4,015 nucleotides of DNA from a virus (Duplodnaviria; Heunggongvirae; Uroviricota; Caudoviricetes): IMG/VR virus record IMGVR_UViG_3300029518_000091, positions 1 through 4,015 of that record; one strand, given 5' to 3'. The stretch's first letter is position 1; every line of letters starts with the position of its first letter. This document shows positions 1,193-1,434 of the stretch, one piece after another. The translations under genes were made by a program, and so were the position numbers. The notes beneath the pieces were generated by a model. It did no database searches. It was not told the DNA's origin and was given only the letters and a program-made list of their open reading frames with translations.

Positions 1193-1233
1193 GTAAAATC
1201 CCCGTCATATGGCAATCAGTAAAGGAAATAAAT

Positions 1234-1434
1234 ATGTCATCGAAAAACCGTACCCGCAGAACCACAACCCGCAATATCCGTTTCCCCAATCACATGATTG
1301 AACAGATCAACATCGCCCTTGAGCATAAAGGGTCCGGTAACTTTTCAGCGTGGGTTATTGAAGCCTGCAGGAGAAGGCTGGCAACAGATGCAACGCATCT
1401 GCGCCCGGCCAGCATGACAAATAACGAGAAATGA
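1234..1434 (+). CDS. Small YlcI/YnfO-like protein (DUF3950-like) with a predicted ribbon-helix-helix fold
   Basis: Internal ATG at 1234 of track ORF 1174..1434, preceded by AGGAAA 6 nt upstream. 66 aa: MSSKNRTRRTTTRNIRFPNHMIEQINIALEHKGSGNFSAWVIEACRRRL... From memory the N-terminus closely resembles E. coli prophage proteins YnfO/YlcI. The beta-strand (NIRFPNHM), helix, GSGN turn, helix (FSAWVIEACRRRL) pattern looks like a RHH (Arc/CopG-type) motif. Only plus-strand gene in the window. Confidence 0.7.
   Translation: MSSKNRTRRTTTRNIRFPNHMIEQINIALEHKGSGNFSAWVIEACRRRLATDATHLRPASMTNNEK

Follow-up and report, generated by a model that had tools for sequence, protein, structure and literature searches.

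An antisense YlcI/YnfO-family gene in the late region of a lambdoid prophage and its likely ribbon-helix-helix fold

Introduction

YlcI and YnfO are proteins of Escherichia coli K-12 encoded by the prophages DLP12 (ylcI, b4589) and Qin (ynfO, b4533); no functional study was found in the literature on YlcI, YnfO, DUF3950, b4589 or b4533. The subject of this analysis is a 66-codon gene carried by a 4,015-nucleotide stretch of viral DNA (positions 1 to 4,015 of IMG/VR virus record IMGVR_UViG_3300029518_000091, hereafter the window), which corresponds to the late region of a lambdoid E. coli prophage and has the late genes written on the minus strand; the gene lies on the plus strand, is under strong purifying selection, and its product likely has a ribbon-helix-helix (RHH) fold. 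Both K-12 proteins belong to the same family by hidden Markov model, above curated cut-offs, and over residues 1-52 the window protein shares 88.5% identity with the K-12 and lambda copies. The K-12 genes occupy the same antisense position directly before packaging genes; however, the window copy faces an HNH and Terminase_2-type module at 41 bp, whereas nohD or nohA stands at 388 bp in K-12, and the window and K-12 copies share neither upstream DNA nor the C-terminal tail (ATDATHLRPASMTNNEK). The window gene is a known, already named member of the YlcI/YnfO family and is ordinary as a finding.

Small RHH-type proteins are likewise encoded among the late genes of phage P22, namely Mnt and Arc, the RHH repressors of immI; mnt is placed on the strand opposite its neighbouring late genes and is annotated with 'maintenance of lysogeny'. 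The NIRFP segment of the window protein aligns with NLRWP of Arc or NFRMP of Mnt; unlike immI, however, the window contains neither an ant-like target gene nor an operator pair, and YlcI lacks the C-terminal tetramerisation domain of Mnt. The best structural matches, at marginal scores, are CopG-family and RHH antitoxin domains (StnY, 9kkd; TacA2, 7ak7; CopA(SO), 6iya; ParD2, 7r5a). Unlike RHH antitoxins the window protein has no toxin partner, and a long basic N-terminal arm together with the invariant or nearly invariant F37, W40 and C45 is specific to YlcI/YnfO when compared with CopG-type RHH proteins. The bor gene of phage lambda is similar in position, as it too is found within the stretch from the lysis genes to cos, antisense to the late operon, and it is among the genes reported to be expressed in lambda lysogens (PMC7067206). 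The bor product, with demonstrated lysogen expression, is a lipoprotein of the outer membrane, whereas that of ylcI is a predicted cytoplasmic DNA-binding protein.

Identity and sequence constraint of the gene

The open reading frame (ORF) at 1234-1434 of the plus strand is intact, begins with ATG and has 66 codons; on direct reading, a Shine-Dalgarno-like AAGGA is present at 1222-1226 (plus strand) and the ATG follows 7 nt later. Exactly 41 bp (1193-1233) lie between its start codon and that of the divergent HNH gene (start 1192), an arrangement given in the preliminary description of the window and borne out by direct reading and the ORF list. That description placed the gene at 1193-1434, of which the end stands and the start does not, as 1193 takes in the spacer; the coding sequence (CDS) runs from 1234. 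A longer reading from GTG-1174 (86 aa) was rejected, since the Met of full-length homologues aligns with the 1234 start, and the E. coli copies, which begin MS(S/T)KNR, are aligned with the same start. The gene and its parts are as follows.

1234-1434, plus strand: YlcI/YnfO-family (DUF3950) gene, 66 aa including a variable C-terminal tail (ORF; Pfam, NCBIfam and PHROG)
1234-1383, plus strand: conserved core, codons 1-50, comprising the basic N-terminal arm, the predicted β-strand and two helices (alignment A4)
1267-1284, plus strand: codons 12-17 (T-R-N-I-R-F), predicted DNA-contacting ribbon strand (conservation, hhalign)
1288-1398, plus strand: two predicted helices, residues 19-32 and 34-55, joined by a G-S-G-N-F-S turn

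The protein matches Pfam DUF3950 (PF13132; E=4.2e-20, 71.8 bits with a cut-off of 25), NCBIfam NF041551 YlcI_YnfO_N (E=8.5e-9, 35.3 bits with a cut-off of 30) and phrog_949 (E=2.4e-33; function of the family not known), and it contains the YlcI/YnfO core motif K/R-x-I-R-F-P ... N-F-S-A-W-V-x-E/D-A-C. The YlcI/YnfO identity first proposed from the letters is thus confirmed by the Pfam and NCBIfam scores above curated cut-offs and by the RefSeq label of identical loci; the 461 bp around the gene (1100-1560) occur at 100% identity in many chromosomes of E. coli, in which RefSeq names a 'YlcI/YnfO family protein' (WP_000095744.1) beside an 'HNH endonuclease'. A locus search returned a match in 1,464 of 5,426 complete E. 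coli genomes, Shiga-toxin phages included; the median genome has 2 matching places.

Between the window and lambda copies, codons 1-50 contain 22 synonymous and 6 non-synonymous changes, a ratio of non-synonymous to synonymous rates (dN/dS) of 0.036, which marks the frame as more than a chance ORF; comparisons of diverged copies give a dN/dS of 0.04-0.11 throughout, and for the conserved core a range of 0.036-0.08 was obtained. The ORF is a real coding gene whose codons 1-50 are under strong purifying selection. In a DNA alignment of six copies (A4) homology extends from the start codon to near codon 50, and codons 1-50 are the only block common to the window, lambda, DLP12 and Qin copies; the C-terminal tails differ between the window, lambda/DLP12, Qin and Stx-phage copies, and both tails and upstream DNA are unrelated between the lambda-type and HNH-type arrangements. 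From these limits of homology, it is the protein core, its position and its orientation that are conserved, and not the flanking sequence.

Position against the late genes

The ylcI-type gene is the sole family-supported plus-strand gene in the window, as the preliminary description had it, with all other family-supported genes on the minus strand.

3925-3581, minus strand: DUF1327/YdfR-family gene (family match)
3530-2997, minus strand: lysozyme gene (family match)
2698-2231, minus strand: Rz gene with an embedded Rz1-position ORF (family match)
1566-1907, minus strand: TonB C-terminal-domain lipoprotein gene, convergent neighbour (Pfam TonB_C, E=9.7e-15; 'TonB family protein' in locus L001)
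827-1192, minus strand: HNH endonuclease gene, divergent neighbour in the late/packaging direction (Pfam HNH, E=3.7e-8; phrog_589)
3-536, minus strand: terminase small subunit gene, truncated at the left edge of the window (Pfam Terminase_2, phrog_641)

Late transcription reaches the terminase small subunit gene only after crossing ylcI in antisense; an identical stretch in E. coli CFSAN061761 runs on into terminase large subunit, capsid and portal genes. The antisense orientation relative to the lysis-to-terminase direction, also part of the preliminary description, recurs in all six lambdoid loci inspected. In K-12 both ylcI (DLP12) and ynfO (Qin) run opposite to the lysis genes and to the DNA-packaging gene (nohD or nohA), and the distance to the noh start is 388 bp in both; Stx2a_WGPS8 and BP-4795 have the same arrangement as the window, including the annotated 41-bp HNH spacer. 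Phage lambda contains an intact YlcI homologue of 64 codons at NC_001416 48109-48303, complement (L004 2710-2904, minus strand), with about 200 bp between it and the right cos end; its protein sequence is identical to that of DLP12 YlcI. This homologue is absent from the NC_001416 annotation and present in the annotation of some lambda-like records.

Lambda has a single late operon, and late transcription must cross the interval from Rz to cos. A CRISPR interference (CRISPRi) screen is consistent with such crossing, as lambdap79, a non-essential gene of the same lambda interval, scored as essential (PMC10695390); the score is interpreted here as a polar effect. Escapers of lambda-vir from the 'Vulcan' defence lose lambdap79, which the authors of that study attribute to likely recombination with Qin (bioRxiv 10.64898/2026.09.04.749371); the conserved ylcI/ynfO core, which lies beside lambdap79, is a plausible homology anchor for this lambda-Qin exchange.

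Predicted fold

In alignments A2 and A3, I15, R16, F37, V41 and C45 are invariant, and F17, A39, W40 and A44 are conserved at 90% or more; these positions, I25 included, fit a strand with alternating core and DNA-facing sides followed by a two-helix core. The strand of residues 12-17 would be expected to form only in the dimer. The first family profile searched against PDB gave a single match, 9kkd_A (StnY, CopG-family ribbon-helix-helix; E=0.55), aligned helix-to-helix; hhalign against P22 Arc places NIRFP opposite NLRWP (P=0.005), Foldseek with the AlphaFold2 monomer has NikR and ParD2 among its top matches (E ~6), and a weak HicB-like PHROG match was also obtained (E=0.007). Since several independent weak signals agree, the RHH fold is accepted as likely for the YlcI/YnfO protein on sequence and model comparison; the RHH-like motif of the preliminary description is sustained by the StnY profile match, the Arc hhalign and the Foldseek matches to NikR and ParD2, all of which are weak signals.

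Unlike Mnt and Arc, which score 1e-30 against Pfam Arc (PF03869), the window protein has no match to this model at E<=0.1; it falls outside the Arc/Mnt family both by the PF03869 model and by pairwise similarity. A profile search of a set of 5.8 billion proteins listed only close relatives and linked no named RHH family.

Relatives in satellites and other loci

The family is small, with 101 representatives at 50% identity among 1.84 billion proteins, and conservation at the protein level reaches down to about 36-46% identity. Genuine matches in the genome collection are almost all from Enterobacterales, with one more member in a Pasteurella satellite. Dozens of further 'YlcI' matches appear in Streptomyces, Cohnella, Flavobacterium, Pseudomonas, Enterococcus and others (L010-L036, L039, L042 and similar), and some database entries with the lambda-type YlcI are labelled Staphylococcus aureus; the stray matches are on contigs of about 3.5 kb or 48.4 kb that encode the exact lambda protein, and appear to be lambda DNA, from a control or spike-in, that remained in the assemblies.

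Diverged members occur in genomic islands, in satellites resembling phage-inducible chromosomal islands (PICI-like satellites) and at chromosomal non-phage loci. Among the last (L097/L098 6001-6225, L091 6001-6180), a Pantoea member sits between a TonB-dependent receptor gene and a CopC gene, and a Rouxiella member comes after the genes for the cytochrome bd subunits and ahead of a DUF2474 gene. The satellites are found in Providencia, Enterobacter, Klebsiella, Serratia, Pectobacterium, Brenneria, Xenorhabdus and Pasteurella, with the gene order integrase, AlpA, AntA, YlcI-like, small genes and primase; the YlcI-like gene is the only one on the opposite strand. Each satellite has element-specific repeated 10- to 12-mers upstream of this gene, at nearly fixed positions of about -98, -74 and -30 from its ATG. 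The satellites also have a conserved GC-rich inverted repeat, adjacent to where the gene set of opposite orientation begins.

About -135 to -1 from the ATG (L099 5808-6000; L005 4480-4713; L062, L072 and others): satellite repeat regions
L072 4598-5887, minus strand: long opposite-strand ORF
L062 4625-5572, minus strand: long opposite-strand ORF
L099 5631-6644, minus strand: long opposite-strand ORF
L093 2583-3257, minus strand: long opposite-strand ORF

The three clearest satellite loci have 3-6 GTG-N6-CAC sites against 0.1-0.2 expected, and one satellite subgroup has GGTACNTACC at about -44 and -10 in their place. The repeat sequence changes along with residues 11-14 of the predicted strand, a covariation that shared ancestry alone could produce; such a layout would be expected of an autoregulated repressor with a divergent promoter as its target. 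In one satellite protein, P0191 (L005 4714-5103), a YlcI-like domain is fused to the N-terminal part of a terminase small subunit; 50 residues of the fused part are 62% identical to the N-terminus of the window terminase small subunit (E=7e-18; Terminase_2 E=1.7e-6).

In about half of the satellites an opposite-strand ORF of 151-429 aa overlaps the YlcI-like gene. These are probable shadow ORFs, as they have no Pfam match, show no codon periodicity outside the overlap and are missing from L005, L055 and L058; the third codon positions of the long ones listed above coincide with those of the YlcI-like frame. One such ORF is the CDS annotated 'transcriptional repressor' in Pasteurella phage Pmp7, which may be a wrong-strand call.

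Proposed role and alternatives

The product of the gene is considered, with slightly better than even confidence, to be a small RHH protein that acts in the lysogen as a sequence-specific transcription regulator, probably a repressor, from a gene read against the late genes. The YlcI-type protein would form an RHH homodimer of the Arc/Mnt/CopG type, in which residues about 12-17 (T-R-N-I-R-F) of the two chains would make an antiparallel ribbon inserted into the DNA major groove; the DNA backbone would be gripped by the Lys/Arg-rich arm of residues 4-13 and by the N-F-S turn at the N-terminus of helix 2, and I15, F17 and both helices would build the dimer core. In the quiet prophage ylcI would be expressed at a low level from its own weak promoter, and after induction late transcription of the lysis genes, HNH and terminase would overrun it. 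Expression of a ylcI-type gene in the lysogen is suggested by its orientation, by analogy with bor and mnt, and by an RNA-seq survey of MG1655 in which the ybcW-ylcI pair is listed as a convergent transcript overlap (excludon) in at least 50% of samples (PMC12288877).

The search for regulatory signals gave one sigma-70-like candidate upstream of ylcI:

1104-1132, plus strand: CTGACA-17-CAGAAT, 9/12 match, inside the HNH gene; the only such match upstream of ylcI

As the 41-bp spacer is too short for a full promoter, a promoter for ylcI would have to overlap the HNH CDS or lie within it. The promoter scan, over the whole region covered, found 4 sites against 2.1 +/- 1.6 expected, which is not significant; no consensus promoter was found upstream of the lambda copy, and Rfam returned nothing relevant. 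The preliminary description had likened the gene to bor as a lysogen-expressed moron, a comparison that these signals do not establish; they amount to the one 9/12 promoter-like site within HNH and no terminator-like site. An 11-mer, GTATTCAGTGT, inverted between the upstream regions of the window and lambda copies (P about 0.01-0.02), was considered as an operator and is attributed to chance, since it is not conserved in a Stx-phage variant with an identical T-R-N-I-R-F strand.

Several results weigh against a lysogen-expressed RHH regulator. The upstream scan found no convincing promoter for the window ylcI, no terminator or stable structure was found 3' of the gene (downstream fold z=0.06 against shuffles), and neither GTG-N6-CAC nor GGT-N-ACC is enriched around the window, Stx-phage, lambda or Qin copies. 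With regard to the fold, the AlphaFold2 monomer has helices at 19-32 and 34-55 and leaves residues 14-18 as coil, at a predicted local distance difference test (pLDDT) score of 65.7; the single-protein search of solved structures gave nothing significant (best match a ribosomal protein, E=1.1), the trimmed profile A3 had no match among solved structures, and BLASTP produced no alignment with P22 Arc or Mnt.

One unlikely alternative is a packaging accessory. In this reading the protein would attach to DNA close to cos, or to the terminase small subunit, and would modulate how cos is recognised or cut, for example to protect the prophage cos or to bias packaging among competing elements. It draws on the gene always being the last before the packaging module in the E. 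coli lambdoid prophages and phages inspected, at 388 bp (nohD, nohA), about 200 bp (lambda cos end) or 41 bp (HNH), and on the terminase fusion in satellite P0191, which is a single case; however, T-R-N-I-R-F is identical beside two unrelated packaging modules, which makes a cos-specific target unlikely, the antisense orientation favours shut-off and not expression at the time of packaging, and the distant members in genomic islands and at the Pantoea and Rouxiella loci have no packaging genes nearby. An RNA role, in which antisense or convergent ylcI transcription dampens leaky late read-through into HNH and terminase in the lysogen in an excludon-type manner, is considered improbable. The geometry does make the late and ylcI transcripts complementary, the MG1655 listing of ybcW-ylcI as a convergent excludon (PMC12288877) agrees with it, and opposite-strand placement within long unidirectional gene sets recurs in prophages and satellites; however, the amino-acid sequence is under purifying selection (22 against 6 changes) and is conserved to about 36-46% identity, and therefore the protein is what is selected. 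An RNA effect could be present as an added layer.

The preliminary description also raised an orphan antitoxin-like protein, considered here as a type II antitoxin acting either against a toxin from another locus or, as a repressor, on a toxin-antitoxin promoter. Antitoxins are common among RHH proteins, and the structural neighbours include TacA2, ParD2 and CopA(SO), with the weak HicB-like PHROG match in addition; even so, this role is judged highly improbable, and the proposal found no support. There is no co-directional partner, the neighbours being the divergent HNH and convergent TonB_C genes (so that the accompanying remark that no toxin is adjacent was correct), a recurring partner is absent from the family contexts inspected, and the toxin-binding part of antitoxins lies in the C-terminal tail, which in this protein is the variable region. 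A 33-aa ORF at 1431-1532 (plus strand) was considered as a partner and rejected, as it has no family match; its ATGA overlap with the ylcI stop is a junction of the kind found in coupled gene pairs.

Extending the preferred RHH regulator to the whole family, YlcI/YnfO proteins may be RHH repressors set backwards in long one-way operons of mobile elements, with copies in Gram-negative PICI-type satellites binding GTG-N6-CAC, element-specific repeats of which lie between the satellite YlcI-like gene and the opposite primase-side set, and with prophage copies acting in trans; this broader proposal is unlikely to hold.

Other features of the window

Five GTTAACATNT repeats lie between the HNH and terminase small subunit genes:

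609-732, both orientations: GTTAACATNT repeats, five copies, 0.02 expected by chance

These are probably the terminase-binding repeats of the cos region; GTTAACAT repeats are present in region 600-800 of the window.

A perfect 17-bp palindrome, AGAATAAGTCTTATTCT, is located at 1913-1929, directly upstream of the TonB_C lipoprotein gene, and is overlapped by a minus-strand promoter-like site at 1925-1952 (ATGACC-16-TAGAAT with TG); a half-site copy is present at 1497-1509. By eye the palindrome resembles a Fur box (about 13/19), which would suggest that the TonB_C lipoprotein gene is an iron-regulated accessory gene. The family of this lipoprotein, phrog_1267, is labelled 'Rz-like spanin' in PHROGs; this looks like a position-based mislabel, since the window already has Rz and the Rz1-position ORF at 2231-2698.

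Implications

The interest of the gene is mainly that of a small unsolved component in phages that have been studied very closely, and it is raised somewhat by the unannotated copy in lambda and by the relatives in satellites. The lambda homologue is under strong purifying selection, stands about 200 bp from the right cos end and has no entry in the reference record. If the protein is a DNA-binding regulator expressed in lysogens, it would be a candidate for the short list of genes reported active in lambda lysogens, namely cI, rexAB, lom and bor. Should the family-wide repressor proposal be true, the satellite YlcI-like protein would be a so-far unrecognised resident repressor, and the prophage copies, including the unannotated lambda gene, would possibly engage in cross-talk with satellites or other prophages. 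The operator-like repeats of the satellite relatives make these elements a tractable system for finding what the family binds.
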